A stretch of 64,000 bases of DNA from Verrucomicrobiia bacterium (GCA_035637495.1 DASPXA010000053.1:694-64693), one strand, 5' to 3'; positions 878 through 39,282 are shown, counted from the first letter of the stretch. Made by a program: numbers and translations. The notes: a model not told the origin generated them from the letters alone.

Positions 878-1576
878 TCAGGTCAGCCGGTCTGCGCGCC
901 GGCGGTAGAAGGCGCCCGCCACGACCAGCCCTATGACGGCGCCCGCCACCGGAAGCGCGAGCCCAAGCGCGTTCGCGGGGTCGAGCGTTGCGGCTTCCTG
1001 GAGGAGGAGCCCGACTCCAAGGCCGGCAAGAAACCCCACGATCATTCCCACCACGCGGGAGGAGCCGGTCGGCTGCAGGAAAAGGCTCGCGATCAAGCCG
1101 ATCAGGCCGAGCAGGGTCGCGATCAGGCCGAGGACCCCGGCCCAGGTCGCCAGTGGGGCGACGTCATCGACGATGATCAAGACGGCGCCGTCGCAGCTGG
1201 TGCTCGTACCCGCCACGGACAGAACCCGCGAGTAGTGGTCGTAGTCCGCGATCCGGTACGGGCCCGCGGCACCCGTCGTGCTGTTGCCCTGACGATCCAG
1301 CAGGGGAAGGCCCACCCCAAAGATGACCACCTTCAGCTGCGCGGAACGCTGGGAGCTTGGTGCCCGGGCCGCGCCGCTGATCACGTCCGCGTCAGTCACG
1401 TGCCAGACCGTTGCGGTCGTCAGGTCGACCGATCCCGACCTGGACGCGGTGGCCGAGGCTGTGCAGCCCCCGCTCACACGCGCCTGTCCCGCCACCGGTG
1501 TGACCAGAAGGCTGATCAGCACGATCAGCCACAGGCGGGACGCGTGTCCCACGACCGTCCGCCGGTTGATCTTCAC
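878..1576 (-). CDS. hypothetical secreted/membrane protein (N-terminal signal peptide, C-terminal multi-TM segment)
   Basis: C-terminal part of the chimeric 660-aa minus ORF. GTG start (comp. 1574-1576) gives MKINRRTVVGHASRLWLIVLISLLVTPVAGQA, a signal-peptide-like N-terminus, and a hydrophobic C-terminus. An alternative GTG start at 1597 is possible. Confidence 0.45.
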   Translation of the reverse strand: MKINRRTVVGHASRLWLIVLISLLVTPVAGQARVSGGCTASATASRSGSVDLTTATVWHVTDADVISGAARAPSSQRSAQLKVVIFGVGLPLLDRQGNSTTGAAGPYRIADYDHYSRVLSVAGTSTSCDGAVLIIVDDVAPLATWAGVLGLIATLLGLIGLIASLFLQPTGSSRVVGMIVGFLAGLGVGLLLQEAATLDPANALGLALPVAGAVIGLVVAGAFYRRRADRLT

Positions 1577-1596
1577 ATTTCTATAACGCGCATGCA

Positions 1597-7305: not shown

Positions 7306-7379
7306 TCGACGGAACTCTAATTGTTCCTTAAACTTCGGGCGTACTCGTCCGGTTTGTAGTGCGTTTGGGGGAGGCGCCT

Positions 7380-8861: not shown

Positions 8862-8875
8862 CTCAGATCTTTCCA

Positions 8876-8911
8876 GCGCCGCTGCCTCGACAAGGCAGCG
8901 GCGCTACTTTT
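8876..8911 (+). terminator. GC-rich hairpin (11-bp stem, 7-nt loop) plus TACTTTTAT after codB. Putative terminator/attenuator that overlaps the ribosome-binding region of the next gene.
   Basis: GCGCCGCTGCC-tcgacaa-GGCAGCGGCGC, then TACTTTTATGCGCATG. The ATG of the DUF3830 gene sits in the U-tract. Confidence 0.45.
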
Positions 8912-9331
8912 ATGCGCATGAACGTCGAGATCAAGGTCGCAGACATGCGCTTTCTCGCGCGAATGGAGAGGGAAGCCGCCCCTCGGACCTGCCAAGCCTT
9001 CGAGTCGATGCTGCCGCTCGAAACACAGCTCATCCAGGCCCGCTGGAGCGGTGAGGCCGCGTGGATTCCTTTCGGTGAGCTCGACTTCGGCCTCGGCTAC
9101 GAGAACCACACCAGTCATCCCGCCCCGGGCCAGCTGCTCCTCTACCCCGGCGGGATCAGCGAGACCGAGATCCTGTTCCCCTACGGCGCGACGCTTTTCG
9201 CCAGCCGGATGGGACAGCTCGCGGGCAACCACTTCGCCACGATCTTCGAAGGCAGTGACCGACTGAAGGAGCTCGGCGACCTCGTGCTGTGGAAGGGAGC
9301 GCAGGAGATCAGGTTTACCTCTCAGCCGTGA
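8912..9331 (+). CDS. DUF3830-family (cyclophilin-like fold) protein
   Basis: MRMNVEIKVADMRFLARMEREAAPRTCQAFESMLP...ARWSGEAAW..., a family recalled as DUF3830 (recognised from memory only). The stop overlaps the GTG of the next gene (GTGA). Confidence 0.6.
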   Translation: MRMNVEIKVADMRFLARMEREAAPRTCQAFESMLPLETQLIQARWSGEAAWIPFGELDFGLGYENHTSHPAPGQLLLYPGGISETEILFPYGATLFASRMGQLAGNHFATIFEGSDRLKELGDLVLWKGAQEIRFTSQP

Positions 9332-10533
9332 ACGACGGAGCGGCCGCGCTCGAGCGATGCGAGATCCTCGCCGCCTGCACGGACGAACCCGGCCGGATCA
9401 CCCGGCCGTTCGCGTCGGACGCGATGCGCCGCGCTCACGAGCACGTCGCGGGGTGGATGCACCAGGCCGGGATGACCGTGACGCGCGACAACATCGGCAA
9501 CCTGCGCGCCCGGTACGAAGGGACCGGACCCGAAACCCTGCTTTTGGGCTCACACCTCGACTCGGTCCGCGACGCGGGCAAGTACGACGGACCGCTCGGC
9601 GTCGTGGTCGCGATCGCTGCCGTCCAGCGTCTGCACGACGCGAACCTGCGGCTGCCGTTTGGCATCGAAGTGCTGGCATTCGCCGACGAGGAAGGCCTCC
9701 GCTTCGGCTCGACCTATCTGGGCAGCCGCGCGCTGGCCGGCCGTCTCGATCGAGCGGAGCTGCAGCGTACGGACGCGGACGGCGTGACGATGGCAGAGGC
9801 GATCCGCAGGTTCGGAGGCGACCCGGACAGGATCGCCGAGGACCGATGGAGCGGCGAGCGTCCGCTCGGCTATGTGGAGGTGCACATCGAGCAGGGACCG
9901 GTGCTGGAGCAACTCGGCCTGCCGGTCGGTGTGGTTTCCGCGATCGCCGGGCAGAGCCGCCACGAGCTCACCTTCACCGGGGAAGCCGGCCACGCCGGCA
10001 CCGTGCCGATGCCACAGCGCCGTGACGCGCTGGTCGGAGCCTCGCTCTTCGTCGAGGCGGTCGACGGCGTACGCGAGAAGCCCGGCCTCGTCGCGACCGT
10101 CGGCCGGCTCACGGTCCGGCCGGGCGCCGCCAACGTGATCCCCGGCGAGGTCACCCTCAGCCTCGACGTTCGCAGCCCTGACGACGAGCAGCGGCAGTTC
10201 GAATGCCAGGCCCTCCTGCACCTGGCAGGCGAGATCGCTCGGCATCGGAACCTGGAGGTGAGCGTGGTCCCCGTGAGCGAGCGCGCCGCGGTCGCCTGCT
10301 CGCCGAGCATCACCGGCCTTCTGCGCGAGGCCATCGGCGATGGTGCGGTGGCGGTGGCCAGCGGCGCCGGCCATGACGGCGTGTACATTTCCGAGATCAC
10401 CGACATCGGCATGGTGTTCGTTCGCTGCAAGGGCGGCATCAGCCACAACCCGGCGGAGTCGGTCGAGGAGGCGGACGTCGCGGTGGCGATTGACGTCCTC
10501 GGCCGCTTTCTGGAGCTGCTCGGCAAGAAGTGA
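9328..10533 (+). CDS. allC: allantoate amidohydrolase / N-carbamoyl-L-amino-acid amidohydrolase (M20 family)
   Basis: GTG 9328 (VNDGAAALERCEILAACTDEPGRITRPF...). The M20/AllC-type N-terminus and ...HLDSV..., ...FADEEG... metal ligands are seen. Confidence 0.85.
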   Translation: MNDGAAALERCEILAACTDEPGRITRPFASDAMRRAHEHVAGWMHQAGMTVTRDNIGNLRARYEGTGPETLLLGSHLDSVRDAGKYDGPLGVVVAIAAVQRLHDANLRLPFGIEVLAFADEEGLRFGSTYLGSRALAGRLDRAELQRTDADGVTMAEAIRRFGGDPDRIAEDRWSGERPLGYVEVHIEQGPVLEQLGLPVGVVSAIAGQSRHELTFTGEAGHAGTVPMPQRRDALVGASLFVEAVDGVREKPGLVATVGRLTVRPGAANVIPGEVTLSLDVRSPDDEQRQFECQALLHLAGEIARHRNLEVSVVPVSERAAVACSPSITGLLREAIGDGAVAVASGAGHDGVYISEITDIGMVFVRCKGGISHNPAESVEEADVAVAIDVLGRFLELLGKK

Positions 10534-26151: not shown

Positions 26152-26918
26152 CCGCCGCTGACCGACAGCGTCTGGCCCGTGATGTACGAAGCCCGGTCAG
26201 AGGCCAGCAGCAGCACCGCCGGCACCACGTCTTCGGGCTTGCCGAGCCGGCGCAGCGGATACGAGCGAGCCGCCTTCTCGCGGATCTCGGCCGTGAACAT
26301 CTTCGCCTGGTCGCTCGACCAGATCGACTCGCTGCCCGAGGTCTCGGGGTCGCCAGGGATCAGGCCGGGAGACACCACGTTCAGCGTGATGCCGTGCTTG
26401 CCAACCTCACGCGCAATCGCCTTCGACATCGCGATCACGGCGGCCTTGGTGCCGCTGTAGACAGCCTCACGCCACTCCCCCATCCGTCCCGCGTCCGATC
26501 CGATCGAGACGACGCGACCGTGGCGCCGCTCGATCATGGGGTCGAGTACCGCGCGCACGCAGTTGATGAAGCCCCACATGTCGATCGCGATCTCGCGCTC
26601 CCACTCCTCACGCGGCTTTTCTGTGAACAACCGGTCGATCGTCCATCCCGCGCAGTTGACCAGCACGTCGACGCCGCCCATCGAGCTCCTGACGAACTGC
26701 ACCATGGACGACACCGACTCCCAGTCGGTGACGTCGGTGTGCCGCGCCACGATCGTTCCCGACGGTGCTTCGGCCTCGACCTTCCTGGCCTGACGGTCGT
26801 CCACGTCAGCGATCACCACCCGCGCGCCCTCGGCCGCAAAGCCGAGCGTGATCGCGCGGCCGAGGTTGGACGCGCCGCCGGTGACGATGACCACGCGACC
26901 GGTGAGACCCAGGTCCAT
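26136..26918 (-). CDS. SDR family short-chain dehydrogenase/reductase
   Basis: Start MDLGLTGRVVIVTGGASNLGRAI... (TGxxxGxG). Catalytic ...YSGTKAA... Its start overlaps the stop of the sortase-fusion gene. Confidence 0.85.
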   Translation of the reverse strand: MDLGLTGRVVIVTGGASNLGRAITLGFAAEGARVVIADVDDRQARKVEAEAPSGTIVARHTDVTDWESVSSMVQFVRSSMGGVDVLVNCAGWTIDRLFTEKPREEWEREIAIDMWGFINCVRAVLDPMIERRHGRVVSIGSDAGRMGEWREAVYSGTKAAVIAMSKAIAREVGKHGITLNVVSPGLIPGDPETSGSESIWSSDQAKMFTAEIREKAARSYPLRRLGKPEDVVPAVLLLASDRASYITGQTLSVSGGYTMV

Positions 26919-29083
26919 CAGGCCGCGGGCACCGCCGTGACGATCAATCGCTCGCCGTACGTTGCCTGGCTCCGGTCCCATGCACCCGCGCATGTGATCA
27001 GCGAAAGGCGCGCGGGACCGGTCTGGGCAAAGACGCCCGGTGGATGGGCCTCGAGTGGCAGCGACTCCGAGGCCGCCACCTGAAACTCGACTGTGCGCCC
27101 GTCGGGCCAGATCACGAGGATCGCGTCGCCAGGGCGCAGGAGCCGAAGGTCTTTGAACACTCCCGGTTGTCGCGGCACGCCGAGGTGACCCGCGAGCACC
27201 GCATCGCCGGGCTGCCCTGGGGACGGACCTTGATTGAACCAACCGACTGATTCGAGGTTGCCCGGTGACGCCATGGCCCCATGCTCGTCCAGACCGACCC
27301 TGTCGATCGGCGCCTCGACCCCGATGCGAGGTATCACGAGGCGCCACCCCGCCGCCTTCGGTTGAAGCGAAGGGACCTGCGGCGGCTGCGCGGCAACCGA
27401 CGGCGCCGCGCTCGTCTGAGAATCTCTTTCGCCGTGGCCATGGTCAACAAGCGCCTCGGCCGTCGCTGGTGACGAAGGCATCCGGTCGACGGCCGGACTG
27501 GAGCCTGCAACCACGCCGGCAATCAGGAGCACCGCCACGGCCCTGCTGCGCCGCCATGCCAGCGACAGCAAAAGAGCCGCTATGAGGAGAAGCGGCCCCA
27601 GCGGCGCCGGCCGGTCGGGCGGCGGCCTCGGGAAGGCGCCGGTGTTGGGCAAGCCTGGCGGAGCCGAGATGATGAAGCACTCGGTCGTTGCGTTGGTGTG
27701 GCTCGCGGGCGCGTAGATCCCGGTGCTCGCCGCATCGGGGGCGTAGACGGTCCTCCAGCAGTACTTCCCCGCGGCGGTGGTCGCCGTCGTGGGGTCAGAC
27801 GTGGCGACGCCCGCCACGAGCGGCTTGGCAGCGCCGACCTGTGCCCCGCCGGTCGGGCATCCTGCCGGAGTCACCAGGGCCGGACCGCACAGGACGAACG
27901 CGACGCTCCCGGTCGGCGCAAGGCCGGCACCGCCATTGCCGGCGGTGACGGTGTCTGTCGCCGAGGCGCCCATTGGAACCGCAGTCCCGGAGGGGACGCT
28001 CGTGCTGGTCAGGGCAGGTGTTCTGCAGGAGTGAAAGTCGATCGGCCCCGCAAAGTCCTTGAGGATCGACGTGAACGACTGCGCGGTTCGCGTGTGCGGC
28101 AGGAACGTGTTGAAGCAGCCGGCAAAGGGAATGCCCTGCAGGTCGACTCCACCCTCCAGCAGGTCGTTCGTGGAAACGGTCGTCGAGTTGCCGGCGATCT
28201 GGTCGCGGCAGACCCAGCCCCCGCACGGAATGTTTGCCGAGTTCACCGTTAGAGCCGCAAAAGCAGGAGCCGGATTGAGCTCGTAGTGCTCAGGCCCACC
28301 GGCGGGGTTGCAGATCGTCCCATCGGGCGGTTGCGGACCGGGGTCGGCGGCGCAGTGCCACTGATAGATGGAGAAGCCGGCAAGGCTTCCGCCATTGGTG
28401 AAGTCGACCGCGACCAGCAGGTCACCCTCACTCCGGTTCCCGGTGAAGGCGCCGCTGCAGCCTGCTGTGAGCACGACCGTGCTCTGGAGGAACTCGAAAT
28501 CCATGTGGCTGTCTCCGTTGTTGACCAGTCGCTCAGCGCCGAAGTACAGCTCCGGATGCCCATCGACCCGGGTGTGGCTCACGGCGTAGACGTTGCTGAG
28601 GTCGGTCTTGGCGGGGACGGGACCGGGGCTGAAGCTGTAGGAAGAGATCGCATCGCCGTTCTTCCCGCCGTTCAGCGTGGTGGGATCGTTGGCCCCACAG
28701 GGCGTCGTGTCTCCTGAGATGGGATCGGCGATGAAAACCGCGGAGATGATGCTTGGATCGGCCGCGGCTGCGGGCGTCAGGGTCGGCGCGATCGGCGGAG
28801 CGGAGCCCGCGGCCGGCCGTCCGCAATTGAAGATGCCCCCCGTTCCGCCAAGGTCTACCGCGCCGGCAGGGCACGTGCCGGTTGGTCCGGCGAGTCCGGA
28901 GTTGGCCCAGTCGTAAGTTGCCCCGCTTGCGGGGTTGAAACGGATCAGCCCATCGATGGCGAGCCAGCCCGAAGGTGCGCCCAGCACCTGGAGGGCTGTT
29001 GCCCCGATGCCAAGAAAGGCAATGGTCGCCGAGAGCGCAACTCTGACCCGGCGACCGGTCTTGGGCTGGTGTGGGGTGGCCAA
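26918..29083 (-). CDS. single-ORF fusion: signal peptide, then a Cys-rich extracellular domain (~480 aa), then an LPNTG sorting signal, hydrophobic helix and RRSR, then a second TM helix, linker, and a sortase catalytic domain (TLxTC active site)
   Basis: 721 aa, TTG start (MATPHQPKTGRRVRVALSATIAFLGIGATALQVLGAPSG...). ...ISAPPGLPNTGAFPRPPPDRPAPLGPLLLIAALLLSLAWRRSRAVAVLLIAGVVAGSS..., then ...VLAGHLGVPRQPGVFKDLRLLRPGDAILVIWPDGRTVEF...ARLSLITCAGAW..., a sortase fold. No stop codon lies between the two parts. Confidence 0.75.
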   Translation of the reverse strand: MATPHQPKTGRRVRVALSATIAFLGIGATALQVLGAPSGWLAIDGLIRFNPASGATYDWANSGLAGPTGTCPAGAVDLGGTGGIFNCGRPAAGSAPPIAPTLTPAAAADPSIISAVFIADPISGDTTPCGANDPTTLNGGKNGDAISSYSFSPGPVPAKTDLSNVYAVSHTRVDGHPELYFGAERLVNNGDSHMDFEFLQSTVVLTAGCSGAFTGNRSEGDLLVAVDFTNGGSLAGFSIYQWHCAADPGPQPPDGTICNPAGGPEHYELNPAPAFAALTVNSANIPCGGWVCRDQIAGNSTTVSTNDLLEGGVDLQGIPFAGCFNTFLPHTRTAQSFTSILKDFAGPIDFHSCRTPALTSTSVPSGTAVPMGASATDTVTAGNGGAGLAPTGSVAFVLCGPALVTPAGCPTGGAQVGAAKPLVAGVATSDPTTATTAAGKYCWRTVYAPDAASTGIYAPASHTNATTECFIISAPPGLPNTGAFPRPPPDRPAPLGPLLLIAALLLSLAWRRSRAVAVLLIAGVVAGSSPAVDRMPSSPATAEALVDHGHGERDSQTSAAPSVAAQPPQVPSLQPKAAGWRLVIPRIGVEAPIDRVGLDEHGAMASPGNLESVGWFNQGPSPGQPGDAVLAGHLGVPRQPGVFKDLRLLRPGDAILVIWPDGRTVEFQVAASESLPLEAHPPGVFAQTGPARLSLITCAGAWDRSQATYGERLIVTAVPAA

Positions 29084-29138: not shown

Positions 29139-29348
29139 TCAGGTCATCGTGCGGCGGTCACCCACCCTCCTGCGCACTTCCGCGCGCCGCTCTAGCCACC
29201 GCCGCGGTCCACTCCGCCGCTCGACCGACACCGCCACGATTCGCTCGCGCCGGTCGGCCCCGGCGCGTCTGTCCGCCGCGCGGCGGTCACCCTCGCCGCG
29301 CCTGGACCCTTGACGCTGCTCGTCCGCCGTCTCCTCGACCGCTTGCAT
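29139..29348 (-). CDS. candidate small Arg/Glu-rich protein (~69 aa)
   Basis: ATG (comp. 29346-29348) preceded by GAGGAGGAGGGG with a 7-nt spacer. An alternative TTG at 29375 overlaps the CpaF stop (TTGA). Sequence MQAVEETADEQRQGSRRGEGDRRAADRRAGADRRERIVAVSVERRSG... Could be a GC-frame artefact. Confidence 0.3.
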   Translation of the reverse strand: MQAVEETADEQRQGSRRGEGDRRAADRRAGADRRERIVAVSVERRSGPRRWLERRAEVRRRVGDRRTMT

Positions 29349-29371: not shown

Positions 29372-30502
29372 TCAACTTCTCTGGACTACGCGAACCGGCT
29401 CCGGAAACAGCTCGACGATCTCGGCCGGCATGGGGAGGCCGAGCTCGTCCAGCTTGTCGAGCACGCGGGGGCGGATCCCGGTCGGTGAGAAGCGCCCCAT
29501 GACCCGACCATTGGCATCCATCCCGGTGCGAATGAACTTGAAGACCTCTTGCATCGTGATCACGTCCTCTTCCATCCCCGTCAGCTCGCTGATCTGGGCC
29601 ACCTTGCGCGTTCCGTCGCGCAGCCGCTCGAGATGGACGACGACGTTGATCGCGCTCGTGACCTGGGCGCGGATGGCGCGCACCGGCAGGTCGTAGCCCG
29701 CCATCAAGACGAGCGTCTCGATCCTGGACAGAGCGTCCCGCGGCCTGTTCGCGTGCAAGGTGGTCATCGAGCCGTCGTGACCGGTGTTCATCGCCTGAAG
29801 CATGTCCAGCGCCTCAGGGCCTCTTACCTCGCCGACCACCAGCCGGTCCGGCCGCATGCGCAGTGACGAGATCACCAGGTCGCGGATCGTGATCTCCTTG
29901 CCTTCCGGGCCTCCAGGCCGCGACTCGAGTCGCGCCACATGTCGCTGGCGAAGCTGAAGCTCGGCGGCGTCCTCGATCGTCACGATTCGCTCGTCGGTCG
30001 GGATGTAGCCCGACAGCACGTTCAGCAGCGTGGTCTTGCCGCTGCCCGTGCCGCCGCTGACAACGATGTTGGCCCTCGCCATGACGCACGCCTTGAGGAA
30101 GCCGAAGGCCGAATCGCTGCAGCTGCCGAGGCGGATCAGGTCCGCCATCTCGAGCGGCCCGCGCTGAAAGCGGCGGATGTTGAGCATCGGGCCATCGACC
30201 GCCACGGGCGGTATGGCGACGTGCACGCGGGAGCCGTCGCTCAAGCGGGCGTCGCAGAGGGGCGATGCTGCGTCGACGTGGCGGCCCACCGATTCGACGA
30301 TGTGGTGGATCACCGCCATCAGCTCTTCTGCGCTGGAGAAGCTGATCGGGGTCAGCAGGATCTTGCCGTCGACCTCGACGTAGATGTCGCGCGGGCCGAC
30401 CACCATGATCTCGGTCACCTGCGGGCTGTGCAGCAGCGGGGCGAGCGGCCCAAGCATGGAGTAGTCGGACGGAAGGACAGGCTGCGCTTGTGCTGTGCTC
30501 AT
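29372..30502 (-). CDS. CpaF/TadA-family secretion ATPase (short paralog, ~376 aa)
   Basis: Start MSTAQAQPVLPSDY... Walker A ...VVSGGTGSGKTTLLN..., ...VGEVRGPEALDMLQAMNTGHDGSMTTLHAN... Confidence 0.85.
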   Translation of the reverse strand: MSTAQAQPVLPSDYSMLGPLAPLLHSPQVTEIMVVGPRDIYVEVDGKILLTPISFSSAEELMAVIHHIVESVGRHVDAASPLCDARLSDGSRVHVAIPPVAVDGPMLNIRRFQRGPLEMADLIRLGSCSDSAFGFLKACVMARANIVVSGGTGSGKTTLLNVLSGYIPTDERIVTIEDAAELQLRQRHVARLESRPGGPEGKEITIRDLVISSLRMRPDRLVVGEVRGPEALDMLQAMNTGHDGSMTTLHANRPRDALSRIETLVLMAGYDLPVRAIRAQVTSAINVVVHLERLRDGTRKVAQISELTGMEEDVITMQEVFKFIRTGMDANGRVMGRFSPTGIRPRVLDKLDELGLPMPAEIVELFPEPVRVVQRS

Positions 30503-32556
30503 TGGATCAACCTCACAGCGGACGGAAACGCCCGCAAAGTAGGATCGGCGGTGATCGACACGGCGCCATTGCCGGTGATGGTCGCGGTCCAGGCGATAAC
30601 GCCTCCGGCGATCGTCGCCTGGTACGAGTTGCTGCCGTTGATCTGGACGTTCGCCGCGGGGAAGTAGACGATTCCGATCAGGCTCGTGAAGCCGTTGCCG
30701 TTGATGGTGTTGGAGCATGTGTTGGGCGTGGCGGACTGAATCGGTCCGGGCTCGAAGATCAGCGTCCTGCCGTACTGGTACCCGCTGAACAGGTAGCTGT
30801 CCGCCCCACCGTGAAGGTCGACGCATCCACCGCTGGGTAGGTAGAAAACCACCGCCCCTGGCGTCCATGCCGACGGGCACGCGGTGTTGTTGCCGAGAGT
30901 GGTGGTAACGCAGTGGCCCTCGTTGGCCAGGTCGCCCTGCGGCGGCACCCCCGACGCAGGGTTGGTGTTCGGCAGAGTGCTCGCGAGAGGCAGACGCTGC
31001 GTGTCCGGCGGTGACTGGCCGGAAAGGCAGTTGTTGATGGTCACACTCGAGCTTCCCCCGCTGCCAACGTTCGTGCAGTAGGTCAGTCCCGTGCAGGTGC
31101 TGTTCTGGGCCAGGTAGACGAAGTAGTCCTGCGCGCCGGGGACGCTCGTCACCGACACCCGGATGTTTCCACTGCTCGCCAACGTCACGGTCCTGCACAT
31201 CGAGGGCGCGCTCTCGCGCAGGTAGCACGTCGATGCAACTGGACCACTGCAGGTGGCCACGCCGTTGGGTTCCCACCGCACGGCCGTCACCTCGACCGAG
31301 TACGTGCCCGACGAGAGTCCGCTGGAGCCGAGGGCAGTGAGGCTGAACGAGCTGCCACACCCTACCCCGTTCATGTCCCAGAACTGGTGAAGCGCCCGCG
31401 CCATGGTGACGACGATCGTTCCGCCGGCAAGCGTGCCGCTCACGGCCTGGGCGGCCACTGGAATCGACGTCGCGTTCAGGGCAGCGCCCGCCGAGGTCAC
31501 GGTGAATGCCTGGTCGTTAAGGCGCACGATCGAGTTCGCAGGCACCGCAACCGTGAGGGCGGTCACCGGAATCGACGTGATCGTGCCCATCAGCGCGGCG
31601 GTGGTCGCGGTCAGGTTGGGCTCGTCCGGCGGTCGCAGCTCGTTGCTGGTGAATCCGCCCAACTGGGTGTACCCGGCGGTGAAGTTGTAGACGCCGCCGC
31701 CCAGGAAGTAGCAGCCGGCGCCGCCGCCCAGGTGCGGGTCCGAGTTGTACGTGCCGGCCAGCTCCACGCTGCCGCTCGACGACGCCCACGAACGAGACGT
31801 CGTGTCAATTGGCGGTGTCGGGTATCCCGGATCGGGAGAGTTCAGGCCGTTGACCTGGGCGCCGGTGACCGTCCACTTCGGCGTCGTGAGCGGGTTTGGC
31901 GGCGCCGGGCAGATGTCGATGACGTTGCCATTGACGGTGCCGCCGGCCGAACCGCTCTGCTCGAAGATGTTGCCGTTCGACCAGATGTCGCCGACGACGG
32001 TCGTCGTCGAGTTGCCCTGGAAGATGAGAGAGCTGCCGCCGCTCGGGCAGCCGTAGGGCGCCAGCGTCTGGATGGCTGCGCCGTTCGTGCCGGCCCTGCG
32101 TGCCACCGCGGTTGCGGTGGCGCCGACGTTCATGGCCCCCGCTCCCAGCACTCGCATGATCGTGACCGGGATCTGATGGGCCGCGGTGGCCGTGAACGTC
32201 GTCCCGGCAATCGAACGGTTGGCGACGGTCAGGATCAGCACCTGGTTGCTCGGGTCGCCGAAGGTACACGTGACGTTCGCGGTTCCGTAGCCTGAGCAGG
32301 TCGGTGGGGTGTAGAGTCGCTGGTTGTTCGCGAACTGGGTGGTGGCCGCCTGCTCCGCCAGGATGTAGCTCGTGTTGTTCATGTAGTTGTAGGCCGCAGC
32401 GAGCGCCGCGGCGTCAACCGCCCCCTGCATGCCGCGCCGGTCGAGGTATCCGCGTCCTCCATCCACGGCCAGGCCGAGGAAGCCGAACAGCGCGACCAGG
32501 ATCAGCGCGACGAGAACGATTGCCTGGCCTTTCTGAGCACGAAGACCGGCGGTCAT
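30499..32556 (-). CDS. TadG-like pilus-assembly protein (686 aa), N-terminal TadE/G-like pseudopilin segment plus a large Gly/Thr/Cys-rich extracellular region
   Basis: Start MTAGLRAQKGQAIVLVALILVALFGFLGLAVDGGRGYLDRRGMQGAVDAAALAAA..., a TadE/G-like N-terminal domain. The start overlaps the TadE stop. Confidence 0.8.
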   Translation of the reverse strand: MTAGLRAQKGQAIVLVALILVALFGFLGLAVDGGRGYLDRRGMQGAVDAAALAAAYNYMNNTSYILAEQAATTQFANNQRLYTPPTCSGYGTANVTCTFGDPSNQVLILTVANRSIAGTTFTATAAHQIPVTIMRVLGAGAMNVGATATAVARRAGTNGAAIQTLAPYGCPSGGSSLIFQGNSTTTVVGDIWSNGNIFEQSGSAGGTVNGNVIDICPAPPNPLTTPKWTVTGAQVNGLNSPDPGYPTPPIDTTSRSWASSSGSVELAGTYNSDPHLGGGAGCYFLGGGVYNFTAGYTQLGGFTSNELRPPDEPNLTATTAALMGTITSIPVTALTVAVPANSIVRLNDQAFTVTSAGAALNATSIPVAAQAVSGTLAGGTIVVTMARALHQFWDMNGVGCGSSFSLTALGSSGLSSGTYSVEVTAVRWEPNGVATCSGPVASTCYLRESAPSMCRTVTLASSGNIRVSVTSVPGAQDYFVYLAQNSTCTGLTYCTNVGSGGSSSVTINNCLSGQSPPDTQRLPLASTLPNTNPASGVPPQGDLANEGHCVTTTLGNNTACPSAWTPGAVVFYLPSGGCVDLHGGADSYLFSGYQYGRTLIFEPGPIQSATPNTCSNTINGNGFTSLIGIVYFPAANVQINGSNSYQATIAGGVIAWTATITGNGAVSITADPTLRAFPSAVRLIQ

Positions 32557-33116
32557 CAATACTCCACGGCGTAGGTGGCGGCCGCCGTGATGATGATGTT
32601 GTTGGCCGTGATCTGGCGAATCAGGGGCGTGAAGGGCACGAAGTTGTAGCGGATCGTCACCTGCAGGGGCGCGTGGTTCCTTGCCGGATTGGTGGCGCTG
32701 CATGATCCCGTTGCGTTTCCCCACATCTGGCCGCCGGGCGCGTTCTCGAGGGTTGGCGAAAGCACCTCCACCGTCGAGGGCGGGTTTGGCTCGGTGATGT
32801 AGATCCAGCCCGTGTTGGAAGGCGGCGTGGTGGCGGTGATCGGCCCGTTCGGGCAGGGGTTGGCGAGGACCATGTCCACCGCGTGCTGCCTGACCGCGGC
32901 CTCCACGTCGGCGTTTGTAGGCAGCTGCGCCGAGGAGCGGATGGCGCTCCGCGCACCTTCGTTGACCGCCTGGTTGAGCGTCACGTAGTAGTAGATGACG
33001 CGGCCGAAGTCGACGATCCCGAACAGCAGGAGGAGAAGGACCGGCGCGATGATCGCGAACTCGACGATCGCTTGCGACCGCTGCGCAGCGTCCCGCTGAC
33101 GGATGAACCTGCGCAC
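32556..33116 (-). CDS. TadE-like protein
   Basis: ...QRSQAIVEFAIIAPVLLLLLFGIVDFGRVIYYYVTLNQAVNEGAR..., a TadE N-terminal domain. Confidence 0.8.
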   Translation of the reverse strand: MRRFIRQRDAAQRSQAIVEFAIIAPVLLLLLFGIVDFGRVIYYYVTLNQAVNEGARSAIRSSAQLPTNADVEAAVRQHAVDMVLANPCPNGPITATTPPSNTGWIYITEPNPPSTVEVLSPTLENAPGGQMWGNATGSCSATNPARNHAPLQVTIRYNFVPFTPLIRQITANNIIITAAATYAVEY

Positions 33117-33117
33117 G

Positions 33118-33681
33118 TCAGTAGCCCCCGACCGTCATGTGCGTGTTGGACACCATGTGGATGGAGCTGCCCAGAGCGTCGGCCAGAAAGCCGGATGTGA
33201 ACCCAAAGCTCATGATGAGGATCACGTTCACGTCGATGCCCTTGTAGGCGTTGTCGACGGGCGCTGATGAGAAGTCAGTGCCCGGATCGTTCGCGAAGCA
33301 GATGAAGAGCAGCGGCTGGTTGAGGCTCGATGGATACCACGAGGGGTCGTACGGCGGGTTGTAGAGCGAGTTGCCGTCAGTCGGTGACGGGCACGTCGTG
33401 CCGGGATTCTGCAGGATCGAGGAGGGCAGCCCAGACTTGAGGAGAATCTGGTCGACCGACGCCTGGATGGCCGAGTCGGACAGGTATGGATTGGTCGACG
33501 AGCTGGCGTCGAACCAGGTCGCCTGGCGGGCGCCTTCTCGCGTCGCTCCCGCAATGGCGACCGCGAAGTAGAAGGCACGGCCCAGGTCGACGAGTCCGAA
33601 GACGAGCAGGATGAGCACGATCGCGGAGACACCGAACTCGACGGTCGATTGACCGCGCATGCGGTCGTGTCTTCGCCGCAT
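33118..33681 (-). CDS. TadE-like protein (second paralog)
   Basis: Start MRRRHDRMRGQSTVEFGVSAIVLILLVFGLVDLGRAFYFAVAIAGATREGARQA... Confidence 0.75.
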   Translation of the reverse strand: MRRRHDRMRGQSTVEFGVSAIVLILLVFGLVDLGRAFYFAVAIAGATREGARQATWFDASSSTNPYLSDSAIQASVDQILLKSGLPSSILQNPGTTCPSPTDGNSLYNPPYDPSWYPSSLNQPLLFICFANDPGTDFSSAPVDNAYKGIDVNVILIMSFGFTSGFLADALGSSIHMVSNTHMTVGGY

Positions 33682-33683
33682 GT

Positions 33684-34619
33684 CTATCCAGCCGCCAGGT
33701 ACTTGAGCGCAAGCAGGAGGGCCGGGCCGAGGATGATCACCCACAGCGTCGGGAAGATGCATCCGAGCATCGGGATGAGCATCTTCAGGGAGGCCCGCGC
33801 CCCCTTTTCCTGCGCTGTGAGGAGGTGCTTGGTCCGGATCTCGTCCGACTGGGCGCGCAGGATTCGGGCAACGCCGGAGCCCAGCTGCTCGGACTGGACG
33901 ATCGCCTGGACGAAGTTGTTCAGCTCCTCGACTCCGAGACGCTGGCCCATGTCGCTCAGCGCGTCCAGACGCGGGCGGCCGAGACGCATCTCCTGGATCA
34001 TGCGGCCGAACTCCTCGGCCAGCGCGTGGTCGAACTTCTCGGCCACCCTCTCGATCGAAGCCTCGAAGGTAAGCCCGGCCTCCACGCACACGACCAGGAC
34101 GTCGATCACATCGGGCAGGTCGTTCTGAATGTCGGTCTTGCGGCGCTTGATCCGCCGGCTCAGCCAGAACATGGGACCGTACAGACCAAGGGCGGCGCCG
34201 ATCGCCGCCGCGACCGCAAGCACGATTGGGCTGCCCTTGAGCAAGCCGATCAGGATCCCCAGCGAGCACAGGAATGCGGTCAACACGTAGCGGAACGCCA
34301 CGAAATCAGTCGTCCCCATGCCCCCGGGGCGCCCGGCCAGCTGCAGCTTCAGGAAGAGCTGCTGGCGCGCATTCGCAGGCATGCTCTGCTCGATGAATTT
34401 CCCGATCCGCTTCAGCGCCGGGCGGATGACGCGCTCGCCGAACGGCATCTGGAGCTCTTCCTCCGCAGTCGAAAGCGCCATGCCGGTCTCGTAGATGCGA
34501 AGGCGGCCCTCGACCACGTCCGCGTTGCTCGGCGCGGCCGGCATCAGGCTCCAGATGATTGCGAACATGCCGAATGCGGCCACCGAACCAAGCAGGGTCG
34601 CCACGTACAGGGCTGTCAC
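33684..34619 (-). CDS. TadC (type II secretion system F-family inner-membrane platform protein)
   Basis: 311 aa. GspF/TadC-type TM topology and conserved cytoplasmic domain (...DLPDVIDVLVVCVEAGLTFEASI...). Confidence 0.85.
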   Translation of the reverse strand: MTALYVATLLGSVAAFGMFAIIWSLMPAAPSNADVVEGRLRIYETGMALSTAEEELQMPFGERVIRPALKRIGKFIEQSMPANARQQLFLKLQLAGRPGGMGTTDFVAFRYVLTAFLCSLGILIGLLKGSPIVLAVAAAIGAALGLYGPMFWLSRRIKRRKTDIQNDLPDVIDVLVVCVEAGLTFEASIERVAEKFDHALAEEFGRMIQEMRLGRPRLDALSDMGQRLGVEELNNFVQAIVQSEQLGSGVARILRAQSDEIRTKHLLTAQEKGARASLKMLIPMLGCIFPTLWVIILGPALLLALKYLAAG

Positions 34620-34621
34620 CG

Positions 34622-35563
34622 CTACACCCTGAAAGACGTGATCCGTCTGATGAAGAGGTTGCCGATGAAGATCGAGATGAGGACAAGAACCAGCATCACG
34701 CGGCCCAGCGGCACGTCGAACATGATTCGGAAGTAGCTCGGCGTGATCACGTCGAGGATGCCCGCGACGGCGAACGGAAGCAGAGTGATGATCCAGCCGG
34801 ACGCGCGCATCTGCGCCGTCAGAGCGGAGATCTGGGCCTTCATCTGGACCCGCTGCCGGATGGTGTGCGAGATGCCGTCGAGGATTCGGGCGAGGTTTCC
34901 GCCCACTGTCGACTGGATCGAGATCGCGGTCACGATCAGGTCCAGGTCTTCGCTTCCGACCCGCCTGACCATGTTCGCCATCGCCTGTGGCGTCGGGCTG
35001 CCCAGGTTCATCTCCCGGATCGCCCTGTGGAGCTCATCAGAGACCGGCGGCGACGCGTTGCGGGCGACCGCCTCGACGGCCTGTGGCAAGGAGAGCCCCG
35101 CCTTCAAGGCGTTGGAGAGGAGGCTGAGCGTGTCGGGGAGGCGGCCGTTGAATGCCTTCAGGCGCCGGCCCTGGCGGAACTTGACGTAGCGCATCGGCAG
35201 CAGGTAGGCGCCAACGCCCGCGATCACAAATTGGGGCGCAAAGCCAAATCGCCACAGCCCCAGCAAGACTCCGACGACGAGGAATCCGAGCTGGATCATG
35301 ACGAACTCGGAGGTCCGAAGCCGGATGTCGGCCCGGCCCAGGTGCTCGGCGAGCGTGAGGCCGCCGTTGAGTCGGCGCCTGCGGTTGGAGCGGTCGGCGA
35401 GCGCCTGGAAGGGTTGGTTGATCCGGTCCCGCAGGCTCGCGTTCGGCGCTCCGCCACGGAACGGGTCGGCCAGGTTCCTCTGGGCGACGGGCAGCGCGAT
35501 CGCGCTGCAGGCGAGCAGCACCCCGACGGCCGCAATCGCAGAGATGATGAAGACGGGGCTCAC
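34622..35563 (-). CDS. TadB (type II secretion system F-family platform protein)
   Basis: GTG start ~35563 (VSPVFIISAIAAVGVLLACSAIAL...). ...LPDTLSLLSNALKAGLSLPQAVEAV... The start lies 1 nt after the CpaF stop. Confidence 0.8.
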   Translation of the reverse strand: MSPVFIISAIAAVGVLLACSAIALPVAQRNLADPFRGGAPNASLRDRINQPFQALADRSNRRRRLNGGLTLAEHLGRADIRLRTSEFVMIQLGFLVVGVLLGLWRFGFAPQFVIAGVGAYLLPMRYVKFRQGRRLKAFNGRLPDTLSLLSNALKAGLSLPQAVEAVARNASPPVSDELHRAIREMNLGSPTPQAMANMVRRVGSEDLDLIVTAISIQSTVGGNLARILDGISHTIRQRVQMKAQISALTAQMRASGWIITLLPFAVAGILDVITPSYFRIMFDVPLGRVMLVLVLISIFIGNLFIRRITSFRV

Positions 35564-35564
35564 G

Positions 35565-37007
35565 TCATGCCTCCACCAGCGCGGCGCGCTCGGCCGGCTT
35601 GAAGATCGACTCCGGCAGGGCCTCACCCCGCTCCGCAAGGTGCTCGAGGTGCACCGACCTCTTGCCCGTGGCCGTGTAAAACCCGACGGCGTTGCCTTCA
35701 ACGTCGGTCCCCGTGAGCTGGAAGCGGAAGAGCTCCTGCTGCTGCGTCTCGCCGCTGGTGATGCCTGTCACCTCGGCGATGCTCACGAGCTTGCGGGCTC
35801 CACCGCGCACACGCTCGACCTGGACGATGACATCGATGGCGGACGCGATCTGCTTCTGGATCGCCCGCGCGGGAAGGTCGGCGCCGGCCATCAGAACCAT
35901 CGTCTCGAGCCGGCTGAACGCGTCGTACGGAGAGTTGGCGTGGACCGTGCTCATCGAGCCTTCGTGCCCGGTGTTCATCGCCTGGAGCATGTCTAGAGCC
36001 TCCCCGCCGCGGCACTCGCCGACGATGATCCGGTCGGGCCGCATGCGGAGGGCGTTGCGGACCAGGTCCCGGATCTCGATCGCTCCCTTGCCCTCGACGT
36101 TGGGCGGCCGGGATTCGAGGCGGATGACATGCTCCTGGCGGAGCTGCAGCTCGGCTGCGTCCTCCACCGTCACGATCCGCTCCTCGGGCGGGATGAAGCT
36201 CGAGAGGATGTTGAGCAGCGTGGTCTTGCCGGACGAGGTGCCGCCCGAGACCAGGATCGTCAGGCGGGCGCGCACCGCGGCGCGTAGGAACTGGACCATC
36301 TCTGGCGTCGCGCTGCCGATCGTCAGCAGGTCCTCGGGCCTCATCTTGTCCTTGGAGAACTTGCGGATGGTCATGCAAGGACCGTCGAGTGCAAGCGGCG
36401 GAAGCACCACGTTGACGCGCGAGCCGTCCCGGAGTCGTGCGTCGCACATCGGCGAGCTTTCGTCTACGCGCCGACCGACGGTGCTTACGATCCGGTCGAT
36501 CACCTGCCGCAACTGACCCGCGTTCTCGAAGACGATCGGGCTGAGGCTCACCCGGCCCCGCCGCTCGACGTAGATCTGATGAGGGTGGTTGATCATGATC
36601 TCGGTGATCGCCGGGTCCTCGAGCAGCTGCTGTAGCGGACCAAGGCCCAGCACGTCGTCAAGCAGCGAGTCGACCAGGTGTCCGTAATCGAGGCGGTTGA
36701 GAGTCGCGCCTGACGTCCGGATGTAATCGTCGGTAAGGATTTCGATGCGCTTGCGTACGCCCGGACGGTCCGTGATGTCGACCTCGTCAGCGTGCATTTC
36801 AATGAGCTGCGTGTAGATGGCCGTCTTCGCGGCCGCGAAGGCCGGCGACGGTCCTGCCGGCTTGCTCACGGCCGGCTTTGGTGCGGGAACCGGCTCGGCC
36901 ACGGGCTCGGGGCGAGTGCCTTCGAGCACGCTGAGGCCGCCCTCATCCAGCTGCCTGCCGTCACCCTGCTTGCGGGCCTGGAGCCTGTCTTTTAGTGCCA
37001 TAGCCAC
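35565..37007 (-). CDS. CpaF/TadA-family secretion ATPase (long paralog, 480 aa)
   Basis: ...ILVSGGTSSGKTTLLN..., ...IVGECRGGEALDMLQAMNTGHEGSMSTVHAN... Pro/Ala-rich N-terminal extension. Confidence 0.9.
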   Translation of the reverse strand: MAMALKDRLQARKQGDGRQLDEGGLSVLEGTRPEPVAEPVPAPKPAVSKPAGPSPAFAAAKTAIYTQLIEMHADEVDITDRPGVRKRIEILTDDYIRTSGATLNRLDYGHLVDSLLDDVLGLGPLQQLLEDPAITEIMINHPHQIYVERRGRVSLSPIVFENAGQLRQVIDRIVSTVGRRVDESSPMCDARLRDGSRVNVVLPPLALDGPCMTIRKFSKDKMRPEDLLTIGSATPEMVQFLRAAVRARLTILVSGGTSSGKTTLLNILSSFIPPEERIVTVEDAAELQLRQEHVIRLESRPPNVEGKGAIEIRDLVRNALRMRPDRIIVGECRGGEALDMLQAMNTGHEGSMSTVHANSPYDAFSRLETMVLMAGADLPARAIQKQIASAIDVIVQVERVRGGARKLVSIAEVTGITSGETQQQELFRFQLTGTDVEGNAVGFYTATGKRSVHLEHLAERGEALPESIFKPAERAALVEA

Positions 37008-37870
37008 CGCGCATCGCGCCTAACCATCAGATTGCCCAGGCGGCGGAGCGACCGCCTCGCCACCCTGCGCACGCGCAGGTCTGGGTCCTGGAGGAGCATC
37101 TCGATCTGGTCGAACGACGACTCGGCGTGCAGCACGGTCAGCGATTTGATCGCCGAGATCCGCACCCGCCAGTCGCGGTCGTACAGGGCCGTGCTCACCG
37201 CGGGGATCGCCGACGCGGCGTTGATCCAGCCGAGCGCTCGGCAGCAGATCACGCGCTGGCGATGCGTGCCTGAGCCGAGAAGCGCAACGAGCGGACCGAT
37301 CGCGGTGCGACGGCGGCGGAGCCCGGCCGCGATCGCGACCGCGCCCAGCGCTCCGGGACGCCGGTCGCTGCACAGAGCGGTCTCGACAAAAAGGTCCGGG
37401 GCCGCCTGGGCGAGGGCGAGGATGAACACGCGGCGCGGTCCGCTGCGCTGCACGGCCCCAAGCAGCGCATCCGCGGCCTGCGTCCCGCCGATCCTGCCCA
37501 GCGCCCTTGCCGCCGATCCGGAAACTCGAGCGTCTTTGGCGCGCAGAAGTGGCGTCAGCCACGGCACGACGCTCTCCATTCGCAGAGAGCCGGCCGTCCG
37601 GCAGCAGCGGATGCGGCGGTCCACGTTGCGTGCGGACAGGCCGTCGATCACCGCGTTCATCGAGCCGTTCTTGTGGAAGGCGGTCACCAACCGCCGCAGC
37701 TCGATGCTGGTCATCTTCATGCGTGCGGTTGCCTGCGCCAGCACGAGCGCAGCGTCGAACCCAGTGGCGTCGAGGTCGAAATGAAGGCGCGTGCCGTGAC
37801 CCGCCGCAATCTCGTGCAGCTCACGCTTCAGCGCGTTGCGCCGAATGCTTCCCCGCGCGTGGTCGATCAT
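36992..37870 (-). CDS. HEAT-repeat (PBS-lyase type) protein
   Basis: 292 aa. Repeated ...AARALGRIGGTQAADALL... and ...VRISAIKSL... HEAT-like units. Overlaps the CpaF start (16 nt) and the CpaE stop (4 nt). Confidence 0.7.
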   Translation of the reverse strand: MIDHARGSIRRNALKRELHEIAAGHGTRLHFDLDATGFDAALVLAQATARMKMTSIELRRLVTAFHKNGSMNAVIDGLSARNVDRRIRCCRTAGSLRMESVVPWLTPLLRAKDARVSGSAARALGRIGGTQAADALLGAVQRSGPRRVFILALAQAAPDLFVETALCSDRRPGALGAVAIAAGLRRRRTAIGPLVALLGSGTHRQRVICCRALGWINAASAIPAVSTALYDRDWRVRISAIKSLTVLHAESSFDQIEMLLQDPDLRVRRVARRSLRRLGNLMVRRDARWLWH

Positions 37871-39282
37871 GTCGTGCTCGCGTCGGCATGCTTCGCCACG
37901 CCAACCACGCTCCGGTTGTGGACGCGGTCGATCAGGGCCGCCAGTGCGTTCGACCCCCTTGTGACCTCGCTCTTAGGATCGGTCACGCTGAGGATCGCGC
38001 CGTCCAGCGCAGCCTGCTCCGGCTTGATGCCGTCGAACGCCACTTCGACGTCGACGGCACGCTTCAGCTTTCGAAGGACTGCGTCGCGAGTCACGGCCGG
38101 CTTCGCGGTTCGGTTGTTGAGCACCACGCTGAGCCGGTCGTCCGGCGTGCCGATCTGGAGCAGGATGTCAATCGCGTCGGCGGCGCTCTTGAGCGCAGAG
38201 AGCTCGGGTGCGACGACCAGGACCATGTGCTGGGTGAGGTCGAGCAGGGCCAGGGTCGAGTCCGAGATCGTGACCCCGAGGTCGACGACGATGTACCGAA
38301 ACGTCCTGCGGAGCACGCTGATCGCCCGGTTGATCAGCTCCGGCGTGACCTCATCGCCCTCCTCGGGCTTGAGCGCGCCGGGAAGGATCATGGGCCCACC
38401 CGAGTGATAGAGGACGGCGCTGAGCAGGACCTCCTCGAACGCATCTGCCGGCACCTCCGACATCCGCGCCAGGCACGTCGTCGGGATCAAGCCCGCCAGC
38501 AACGCGGCGTGGGAGTACGGAAAGTCGAGGTCGAGGAGCAGGACCTGACCGGGGTATGCACGCGAGAGCGAACCGACCAGGTTGAGGGCGATGCACGTAC
38601 CGCCAGATCCGCCCTTGGGCGAGTAGACACCGACGACGGTCGCCTCGCGAAGCAGCATTCCCCACGTCGCCTGCGTCGCCGTGTCCGCGAAAGCCTTGAA
38701 GCGGTGGTCCGCGACCTTTCGGAGCTCCTCCAGCGCCGCGCGGTCCCTTCCCCCGAGAACGGCGGCGAGGTTCTGGCGGTCGAGCGCGAGCAGGATGCAC
38801 TCGGTCTGGGCGTACACCGACGCCTGCTGCGGCCTGTTCAGCACGCAGGCCGCGTCGCCGAAGAAGTCGCCCTCCGACAGCACGGCCACGGTGACCTCGG
38901 TCGGAGGCTTCTCGACCACGAGCCGGCACCGGCCGCGCTCGATGAAGAAGATGGTGTCGCCAGGCTCGCCCTGGTAGAGAACCATCTCGCCCGCGCCGAT
39001 GCGGATCCGGCGCACCCGCCTGGCGACGGAGCGAAGCGTGCTCTCCGACAGGGTGAAGAAGACCGGGGCGCGCTGCAGCACGGCGAGCCTGGCCACCATG
39101 TCCTCATACGAAGGCCAGCCGTTGTCGGGCCGCCTCTGCAGCACGGGCTCACGGAGTACCGGCCCGGCCGATGCGAGCACGGGCCGTCCCGGCTCCGGCA
39201 CCGGTACCTCCTCGCCGTGCACCTGCGGCCTCATGAAAGCCTCCCCTGCCATCTGGTCGATCAGGCCCTCGTGAATCCCCAT
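37867..39282 (-). CDS. fusion of a cyclic-nucleotide-binding (CAP effector-type) domain with a CpaE/TadZ-like ParA/MinD-family ATPase
   Basis: N-terminal ...IRIGAGEMVLYQGEPGDTIFFIERGRCRLVV...LSEGDFFGDAACVLNRPQQASVYAQTECILLAL..., a cNMP-binding beta-barrel. C-terminal ...VGVYSPKGGSGGTCIALNLVGSL..., a deviant Walker A of CpaE/TadZ. The true start may be an internal M (39252, 39234 or 39099). Confidence 0.8.
   Translation of the reverse strand: MGIHEGLIDQMAGEAFMRPQVHGEEVPVPEPGRPVLASAGPVLREPVLQRRPDNGWPSYEDMVARLAVLQRAPVFFTLSESTLRSVARRVRRIRIGAGEMVLYQGEPGDTIFFIERGRCRLVVEKPPTEVTVAVLSEGDFFGDAACVLNRPQQASVYAQTECILLALDRQNLAAVLGGRDRAALEELRKVADHRFKAFADTATQATWGMLLREATVVGVYSPKGGSGGTCIALNLVGSLSRAYPGQVLLLDLDFPYSHAALLAGLIPTTCLARMSEVPADAFEEVLLSAVLYHSGGPMILPGALKPEEGDEVTPELINRAISVLRRTFRYIVVDLGVTISDSTLALLDLTQHMVLVVAPELSALKSAADAIDILLQIGTPDDRLSVVLNNRTAKPAVTRDAVLRKLKRAVDVEVAFDGIKPEQAALDGAILSVTDPKSEVTRGSNALAALIDRVHNRSVVGVAKHADASTT

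Follow-up and report, generated by a model that had tools for sequence, protein, structure and literature searches.

One reading frame for a predicted LPXTG-type cargo and its sortase domain in Candidatus Dormibacterota

Introduction

Sortases are described as separate enzymes in a sortase review and in a study of the class E and F enzymes (PMC8225981, PMC13251363). A stretch of 64,000 nucleotides from an assembly deposited as Verrucomicrobiia bacterium (GCA_035637495.1, DASPXA010000053.1:694-64693; the whole stretch is hereafter the window) raises the question of whether such an enzyme can also be built into its own substrate. On the minus strand, one open reading frame (ORF) of 721 amino acids (26918-29083, TTG start) encodes in a single chain a signal peptide, an ectodomain, an LPNTG motif, two hydrophobic helices around a basic RRSR patch, and a sortase catalytic domain. 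The original prediction, made from this DNA, took the ORF for a surface-protein substrate fused to its enzyme, and named as the alternative a sequencing artefact that hides a stop or start codon. Here, we ask whether the fusion is real, whether its two halves are what they appear to be, and how such a protein might work.

Results

Fused homologs in independent assemblies

A search space of 5.8 billion proteins gave 293 matches to the 721-aa protein. Among the best 120, which were examined, more than 100 have a length of ~680-730 aa, align over 94-99% of the query, and are 53-73% identical to it, and one (P0001) is a 99%-identical copy. At least 109 proteins were classed as carrying the head domain, an immunoglobulin-like (Ig) domain, LPxTG, the helices, and the sortase in one chain (53-99% identity). 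They come from independent ENA, JGI, NCBI, and Logan assemblies, the named sources being soil metagenome-assembled genomes (MAGs) of Candidatus Dormibacteraeota or "Chloroflexi", and their public annotation is plain sortase or class F sortase. Within the GTDB species-representative genomes, 19 loci encode a relative, the closest of which (L005) is 89% identical, and eleven GTDB MAGs hold the head, LPNTG, and a sortase-domain match in one stop-free frame, which in L009 and L012 runs to the contig end.

These homologs bear directly on the artefact explanation, in which a stop codon missed in this contig, or a frameshift, has joined two adjacent genes. Such an error is conceivable here, as relatives with a split form exist in which the two genes overlap by 4 nt, and a 1-2-nt error at that place would yield a fusion. 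However, the same continuous ORF is kept in at least 109 homologs from differing samples, sequencing centres, and assemblers, the eleven GTDB MAGs (two of them up to the contig end) have the stop-free frame, and the residues of the junction are conserved at the protein level. The artefact is therefore excluded in practice, its probability being negligible. Because the same uninterrupted architecture recurs in more than 100 homologs down to 53% identity, the fusion is more than chance, and we are virtually certain that it is real. The search for fused and split architectures in relatives, which the original prediction had proposed, found both, and the fused one in more than 100 homologs. A 501-aa "substrate-only" match (P0116) was rejected as a split gene because it is truncated by the contig end. 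The ORF is a genuine, vertically inherited cargo and sortase module of Candidatus Dormibacterota, and the G+C content of the window (~0.64-0.73) fits the 66.9% reported for Candidatus Dormibacteria soil genomes (PMC10608941).

Layout of the 721-aa protein

The uninterrupted ORF and the motifs first quoted for it are present in the ORF list and by string check, with GHLG at residue 632, GDAILVIW at 652, TVEF at 664, and LSLITCAGAW at 693. A Kyte-Doolittle scan found exactly three hydrophobic segments in the 721 residues (15-35, 492-511, and 513-532). The first is the core of a signal peptide (aa 1-35, 28979-29083) with a basic n-region (K8, R11, R12, and R14) and a helix at 10-33 in the AlphaFold2 (AF2) model; cleavage is predicted near VLG-A/PSG, and the mature N-terminus A-P-S-x-W-L is kept at ≥90% in a 68-sequence alignment. 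The head domain (aa 36-354, 28022-28978) follows, all-beta and disulfide-rich, with 10 conserved Cys and many invariant polar residues, and then an Ig-like stalk domain (aa 355-472, 27668-28021) with 4 conserved Cys. The 16 ectodomain Cys first counted are in fact 14, all 14 invariant or ≥90% conserved; a fifteenth, Cys698, is catalytic.

The second part of the chain starts with the LPNTG recognition motif (aa 478-482, 27638-27652; predicted scissile bond Thr481-Gly482) and a Pro-rich spacer (aa 483-493, 27605-27637). The first transmembrane helix (TM1), the helix of the sorting signal, spans aa 494-510 (PLGPLLLIAALLLSLAW; 27554-27604) and is predicted to run from outside to inside, with Kyte-Doolittle values up to 2.5. 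The RRSR patch (aa 511-514, 27542-27553) would form a cytoplasmic turn, and TM2, the putative signal-anchor of the sortase, would return from inside to outside (aa 515-530, of which 515-527 are AVAVLLIAGVVAG; 27494-27541). A disordered Pro/Ala-rich tether (aa 531-578, 27350-27493) leads to the sortase catalytic domain (aa 579-719, 26927-27349), and in total 207 residues follow the basic patch. In the AF2 model, built on the 68-sequence alignment with an overall predicted local distance difference test (pLDDT) score of 83, the N-terminal region is all-beta, the sortase barrel (580-719) is confident, and the tether is disordered, with pLDDT below 50 over 525-574. The tether has a mean identity to the query of 13% and a variable length. 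The topology first predicted, with the ectodomain outside, RRSR inside, and the sortase outside, fits the hydropathy and the position of the basic patch.

Conservation of the junction

The junction was aligned over the 63 hairpin-bearing members of the family. Within LP[N/D]TG, L478, P479, and T481 are present in 63/63 sequences, position 480 is N in 47 and D in 16, and G482 is kept in 61/63. Beside the motif, conservation falls to 37% in the spacer and 24% in the tether. The spacer varies in sequence, with a Pro at +3 in 61/63 and another just before TM1 in 56/63; the hydrophobicity of TM1 and TM2 is retained throughout, and the basic turn is conserved as R511 (54/63), R512 (59/63), and R514 (58/63). 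Over 15 loci, the motif is written with three Leu, two Pro, four Thr, and four Gly codons. As the codons vary synonymously, the amino acids are kept by selection and not by recent common descent. Purifying selection acts on the arrangement as a whole.

All parts of the tripartite signal, i.e., the LPXTG pentapeptide, the PLGPLLLIAALLLSLAW helix, and the RRSR tail, are present and conserved, which bears out the "textbook" sorting signal of the original prediction. In the window protein this signal is internal and not C-terminal, whereas in the unfused relatives described below (within P0122-P0139) it ends the protein in canonical fashion.

The unfused form

Searching with the head domain alone retrieved split forms. 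Nine unfused proteins (P0122-P0127, P0132, P0134, and P0139) have 511-525 aa and a head 64-69% identical to that of the window, and end with LPxTG, a helix, a basic tail, and a stop codon (for example, ...PGLPNTGRPPSGPRLPAEAAWLLAAAAVTTLAAWAWRRS-stop). At two loci (L024 and L025), this substrate gene (8001-9578) is followed by a sortase gene for 208 aa (9575-10201), and the two have 4 nt in common (TCATGA). The substrate is 61% identical to query residues 13-482, the alignment ending exactly at LPNTG, and the sortase is 50% identical to residues 560-718. A second split example (L014) lies in a species-representative MAG. In some split forms, the Thr of the motif is replaced by Ala (LPNAG, LPAAG, and LPSAG).

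The two forms can be compared almost residue by residue. The split junction reads A-W-R-R-S-stop, overlapping M-R-V-V-H-W-A-A-P-L-L-V-A-G-L, and the fused one reads A-W-R-R-S-R-A-V-A-V-L-L-I-A-G-V. TM1 aligns with the terminal helix of the unfused substrates, TM2 corresponds to MRVVHWAAPLLVAGLAW, the N-terminus of the separate L024 sortase, and RRSR aligns with the stop/start overlap TCATGA. The codon of Ser513 lies opposite the ATG that starts the separate sortase, with a shift of 2 nt in register between the two forms. RRSR would play two roles at once, being the charged tail that ends the sorting signal and the positive n-region with which the sortase signal-anchor begins. Since the stop-transfer helix of the substrate and the signal-anchor of the sortase both have a cytoplasmic basic end, fusing them needs no change of topology, only one shared basic patch.

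The unfused equivalents end in a canonical signal and have a sortase gene of their own, so that the N-terminal part of the window protein would be a genuine substrate and the C-terminal part its dedicated enzyme. At the level of sequence comparison, the split pair is the decisive evidence for this substrate and sortase reading.

The same junction bears on a further explanation, in which two products arise by internal initiation near the RRSR turn and the genes are functionally still split. The window has GTG codons at Val516 and Val518, and, as said, Ser513 lies opposite the start codon of the L024 sortase gene. However, no start-capable codon is conserved there: no conserved internal start was found in the 63-sequence alignment or in the codons read at the loci, position 513 is S, T, or G, position 516 is V, I, L, or A, and L012, L013, and L018 have no start-capable codon in the codons read. 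Separate translation of the sortase is thus not a conserved feature, and the full-length chain would be made anyway, as no stop is present. We consider this explanation very improbable.

The sortase domain

The C-terminal part was first taken for a sortase from its motifs, and hidden Markov models agree. PF04203 matches aa 582-719 with 69.8 bits (cutoff 26.6, E = 2.3e-19) over profile positions 1-124 of 125, and among the NCBIfam models class F (NF033748) is best with 121.5 bits, class E following with 25 bits. Class F is the top-scoring class for all four architectures found in this family (114-132 bits), with 114.4 bits in the split form, 124.8 in the form here called type C, and 132.5 in type D, all below the cutoff of 166. 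The triad residues H633 (in AGHLG; 27185-27187), C698 (SLITCAG, a TLxTC-like context; 26990-26992), and R712 (GERLIV; 26948-26950), whose codon coordinates were checked, are invariant in 68/68 aligned sequences. The AF2 model has a sortase beta-barrel with pLDDT of ~90-97 across 580-719, and all 21 Foldseek matches to the PDB at E ≤ 1e-3 are sortases (best 3tbe_C, 8.5e-9; also 5k9a, ~1e-8). By hydropathy, the helix that follows RRSR resembles a signal-anchor, and it aligns with the N-terminal helix of the separate L024 sortase. By its profile scores, the domain is class F-like, a divergent branch of the class F sortases.

Other fused variants

Besides the hairpin-fused form of the window, the family has two fused variants without helices at the junction. 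Type C (11 proteins of 525-558 aa; loci L019 and L027) lacks the Ig domain and is ordered as head, PGLP[N/D]TGLV.PD.., a Pro-rich linker of ~30 residues, and sortase, the signal peptide being its sole hydrophobic segment. As LP[ND]TG is kept here without the membrane hairpin, the motif is retained specifically beside this enzyme, which would be hard to explain unless this enzyme uses this motif. Directly after the motif, type C proteins (P0129-P0152) conserve G-L-V-[D/E/G]-P-D-[G/W]; this resembles the D-P-[F/W/Y] "lid" that occupies the active site of class C sortases, a likeness that may be coincidental. One type C locus (L019, DATGVT010000295.1) is in a MAG labelled Candidatus Acidiferrales, which we take to be an Acidobacteriota lineage and hence outside Dormibacterota; its placement could be due to mis-binning or horizontal transfer.

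Type D (6 proteins, P0115, P0117-P0120, and P0141, of ~640-670 aa; loci L003, L016, and L017) joins the head and Ig domains directly to a sortase with an intact triad. At the position of LPxTG, it has P-x-P-P-x-[A/S]-G-[R/H] (PAPPDAGR, PGPPAAGR, and PGPPNSGR). Because split forms also use Ala at the Thr position, this lineage may tolerate Ala there, and the type D motif may be divergent and still cleavable, rather than dead.

All 17 of 17 species-representative MAGs carry exactly one architecture type. In a bootstrapped neighbor-joining tree of the head domain, the split A1 (97/100), C (98), and D (70) clades are supported, the monophyly of the hairpin-fused form receives only 9/100, and the tree gives neither an order of the architectures nor a decision between fusion and fission.

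A scan for sortases and sorting signals covered 317 kb, i.e., the window and the related loci. It found no sortase domain other than the head-linked ones, and the ORFs with sorting signals that it picked up were all of the head family, except for two false positives in the window: a match at 7359-8861 (+) was rejected as a cytosine/purine permease, and one at 878-2860 (-) as a spurious long ORF that masks a small membrane protein with several helices. This result, whose scope is related loci and not whole genomes, fits a dedicated pair.

These variants and the scan are the material on which to weigh a third explanation, that the fusion is real and the protein does not process itself. The head and stalk would then be a permanent targeting or accessory domain, with LPNTG cut by another sortase or kept for another reason. 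Type D might be such a case, as it joins head and stalk to an apparently active sortase without canonical LPxTG or helices, and large N-terminal extensions of sortases do exist (Actinoplanes SrtE has 792 aa with its catalytic domain at 575-775; PMC13251363). However, no stretch of the junction is better conserved than LP[ND]TG, whose codons turn over synonymously, type C retains it, the unfused orthologue is a textbook substrate, and the scan picked up no other sortase or substrate in the 317 kb of related DNA. On balance, we regard this explanation as quite improbable.

The cargo: head and stalk

The head domain of the window protein matches no Pfam or NCBIfam family. No convincing solved relative was found for its 319 residues, with Foldseek TM-scores of ≤0.27 and a weak similarity to CBM9-like or DOMON-like sandwiches. 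The unit of head and Ig domain has 2,195 relatives at 50% clustering, where it is typically N-terminal; these proteins reach 3,782 aa and as many as 19 Ig repeats. More distant members carry SpaA-type, DUF11/DUF7507, or Big_3_5 domains, some with C-terminal LPxTG anchors (in P0170, Gram_pos_anchor scores 21 bits against a cutoff of 20). This company of SpaA, DUF11, Ig, and Gram_pos_anchor domains suggests that the head is a recurrent sortase cargo. A sortase domain occurs in only 3/139 of the top head representatives examined, all three close to the query. Examples of the head in Actinomycetota and Acidobacteriota MAGs run off contig ends. In one Actinomycetota MAG (L023, 1041-3584 and 3932-5607), a protein with a head and repeated Ig domains (off the contig) adjoins an 847-aa repeat protein in which LPATG and then a hydrophobic stretch lie close to the C-terminus; the two form an ordinary surface-protein cluster of the Gram-positive kind.

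Within the head, the invariant polar residues are K159, E178, E184, H193, D195, E197, Q200, R217, D221, D227, R293, E310, H330, T331, R332, and D343, and the invariant motifs include NNGDSHxDFEFLQ and FLPHTRTAQSF. Such a pattern would be compatible with the binding of a metal or ligand, or with a Lys-Asn/Asp isopeptide formed intramolecularly. Overall, the cargo resembles a surface adhesin's tip and stalk.

This likeness raises the possibility of polymer assembly, in which the tethered sortase would link Thr481 to another copy, through either a Lys or the N-terminal amine, giving covalent pilus-like or sheet-like structures as class C sortases do with pilins. Gram-positive pilins and adhesins are likewise built as a head on an Ig stalk, relatives have SpaA-type domains and adhesin-like stalk folds, Lys159 is invariant even in distant relatives, and the mature APSxWL end is conserved. 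Moreover, the matches to PDB profiles are best with class C sortases, and in type C, which lacks a membrane helix, a reaction directed at lipid II is less obvious. Against this stand the NCBIfam class C model, which has no match at E ≤ 1 to the window protein and only 16-19 bits in relatives, the unfused relatives, which look like ordinary wall-anchored proteins with one dedicated sortase, and the surroundings, in which there are no minor-pilin or base-pilin genes nearby. No YPKN-type pilin motif was seen in the sequence, where no search aimed at YPKN was made. Taken together, polymer assembly appears unlikely.

Genomic neighborhood

Downstream of the fused gene, the short-chain dehydrogenase (SDR), luciferase-like, and enoyl-CoA hydratase genes are syntenic across orthologues, and the last base of the fused gene's stop codon is the first base of the ATG of the SDR gene (TGATG, 26916-26920, minus strand). 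Sortase and SDR also lie side by side in L001, L002, and L004, a conservation that points to a shared transcript with a metabolic gene whose function has no evident relation.

Directly upstream is a Tad/Flp-type pilus locus (29372-37007, with 36992-39282, both minus strand), with two CpaF-like T2SSE ATPases, two T2SSF (TadB/C) genes, two TadE-like genes, and a 741-aa TadG-like protein whose large C-terminal region is without assignment; HEAT-repeat and cNMP-binding proteins precede the locus. A functional tie to this locus was rejected, as the upstream CpaF is shared only with the 89%-identical L005. The loci L001, L002, and L004 have other upstream genes, such as an ABC transporter (L001) or a set including VWA-domain and TelA-family genes (L004). 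The CpaF-like and fused genes are separated by 288 nt, and this spacer contains a 69-codon ORF (29140-29348, minus strand) preceded by a strong Shine-Dalgarno-like GAGGAGGAGGGG; it is a candidate for an Arg/Glu/Asp-rich peptide with repeated DRR units (MQAVEETADEQRQGSRRGEGDRRAADRR...).

Discussion

A proposed mechanism and its weak points

The best explanation overall, and in our judgement probably the correct one, is that the ORF encodes a self-contained module of cargo and sortase. On the strength of the sequence comparisons above, it is also likely that the protein's own sortase domain would process LPNTG. If the protein follows the established sortase pathway, the Sec system would export the ectodomain, with removal of the signal peptide, and TM1 and TM2 would insert as a hairpin with RRSR in the cytoplasm, which would place LPNTG and the sortase domain both on the outer face of the membrane. 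With LPNTG ~11 residues from the membrane, the flexible sortase tether of ~48 residues would let the enzyme reach its own motif or that of a neighbour. Cys698 could then attack the bond between Thr481 and Gly482, either in its own chain or in a neighbouring copy, forming a thioacyl intermediate, from which an amine nucleophile, most likely a peptidoglycan precursor, would take over the head and stalk. A peptidoglycan precursor is favored because Dormibacterota group with Chloroflexota in Terrabacteria, which includes monoderm phyla (PMC10608941); that the cell wall is the acceptor has, in our estimate, about an even chance. The two-helix sortase, now starting at Gly482, would remain membrane-bound and might in principle act again on further copies. 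Such a fusion would fix the ratio of enzyme to cargo at 1:1 and put both side by side.

Several observations weigh against this proposal: (i) PF00746 (Gram_pos_anchor) has no match at E ≤ 1 to the internal signal of the window protein. (ii) Docking of LPNTG in the active site, which the original prediction had suggested looking for in a structure model, was not seen in the full-length AF2 model, where pLDDT near the motif is ~60. (iii) The class F score of the window sortase (121.5 bits) is under the curated cutoff of 166. (iv) The placement of Dormibacterota with the monoderm-type Terrabacteria next to Chloroflexota is only inferred (PMC10608941). (v) In type D, where canonical LPxTG is lost and the triad kept, the head may be a permanent accessory of the enzyme and not its cargo.

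A bolder version of the module is obligate, essentially single-turnover self-sorting, in which each ectodomain would be ligated in cis without a housekeeping sortase and the helix-free type C would be a secreted covalent adhesin. We consider this version doubtful. If it were true, the soluble sortase of type C could ligate its head to amines off the producer's membrane, such as those of the mature wall, matrix polymers, or other cells. Such a sortase would do its work away from the membrane, and protein ligation tools in one piece would have a natural template in it.

Significance

A full-text literature search found no natural substrate-sortase fusion, every sortase fusion in it being engineered, and no paper linking Dormibacterota with sortases; the claim that such a fusion had not been described before is consistent with this. 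The parts are known, namely the LPXTG signal, the sortase, and the adhesin-like cargo. What is new is their union in one chain, the internal, hairpin-forming sorting signal, and the natural series from split to hairpin-fused, soluble-linker, and motif-degenerate forms. Nature has joined enzyme and target in at least three fused layouts, plus a split one, within one lineage of a globally distributed, uncultured soil phylum.

The family could serve as a natural test bed for whether a sortase can act on its own chain, for the value of 1:1 stoichiometry and proximity, for whether a sortase can work without a membrane anchor, as type C suggests, and for the conversion of a C-terminal sorting signal into an internal hairpin by a 1-2-nt change. 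The class F-like sortases would gain a defined, if still predicted, cognate substrate, and protein engineering a pre-evolved scaffold of cargo, LPXTG, linker, and sortase. The head domain, with its many relatives and no solved fold, is flagged as a recurrent surface cargo.

Comparison with known systems

The closest natural counterparts are the split pairs of the same family (L024, L025, and L014), which share with the window protein the cargo family (61% identity), the sortase lineage (50%), the LPxTG motif, the helix, the basic tail, and the position of the enzyme 3' of its cargo. They are unlike it in having the stop and start codons that are absent here, whereas in the window form the helices make an internal hairpin and the signal is not C-terminal. 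A looser analogy is with autoprocessing proteins such as Hedgehog, in which a C-terminal domain splits off the N-terminal one and attaches it covalently to its destination, and where likewise one chain forms a (thio)ester intermediate at a junction and an external nucleophile fixes the N-terminal domain, although the folds and chemistry are unrelated (HINT and cholesterol versus barrel and amine).

Among sortases, class F (NF033748; prototype SrtF of Propionibacterium/Cutibacterium acnes) is the nearest, with the best class score and the same His-Cys-Arg triad, and the P. acnes enzyme is reported to recognise LPXTG (PMC8225981). Known class F enzymes have ~180-270 aa with no substrate attached, and their physiological roles are stated to be unknown (PMC13251363).

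Among engineered proteins, the STEPL design has the same order of cargo, LPxTG, and sortase in one chain, a likeness of architecture and not a homology of origin. In STEPL (cargo-LPETG-sortase), the built-in sortase sets the cargo free and joins it to an amine nucleophile supplied from outside (PMC11561820; the design is also described in PMC9075798), and self-cleaving sortase tags such as BISOP are related in kind (PMC2901362). That STEPL works shows that such a geometry can function. STEPL and the self-cleaving tags differ from the present proteins in being laboratory constructs on the class A sortase of S. aureus, whereas the fusion described here is natural, conserved in a phylum-level lineage, and in the window form built around a hairpin. 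Type C, in which head, LPNTG, a linker of ~30 aa, and sortase follow one another, is essentially a natural STEPL construct.

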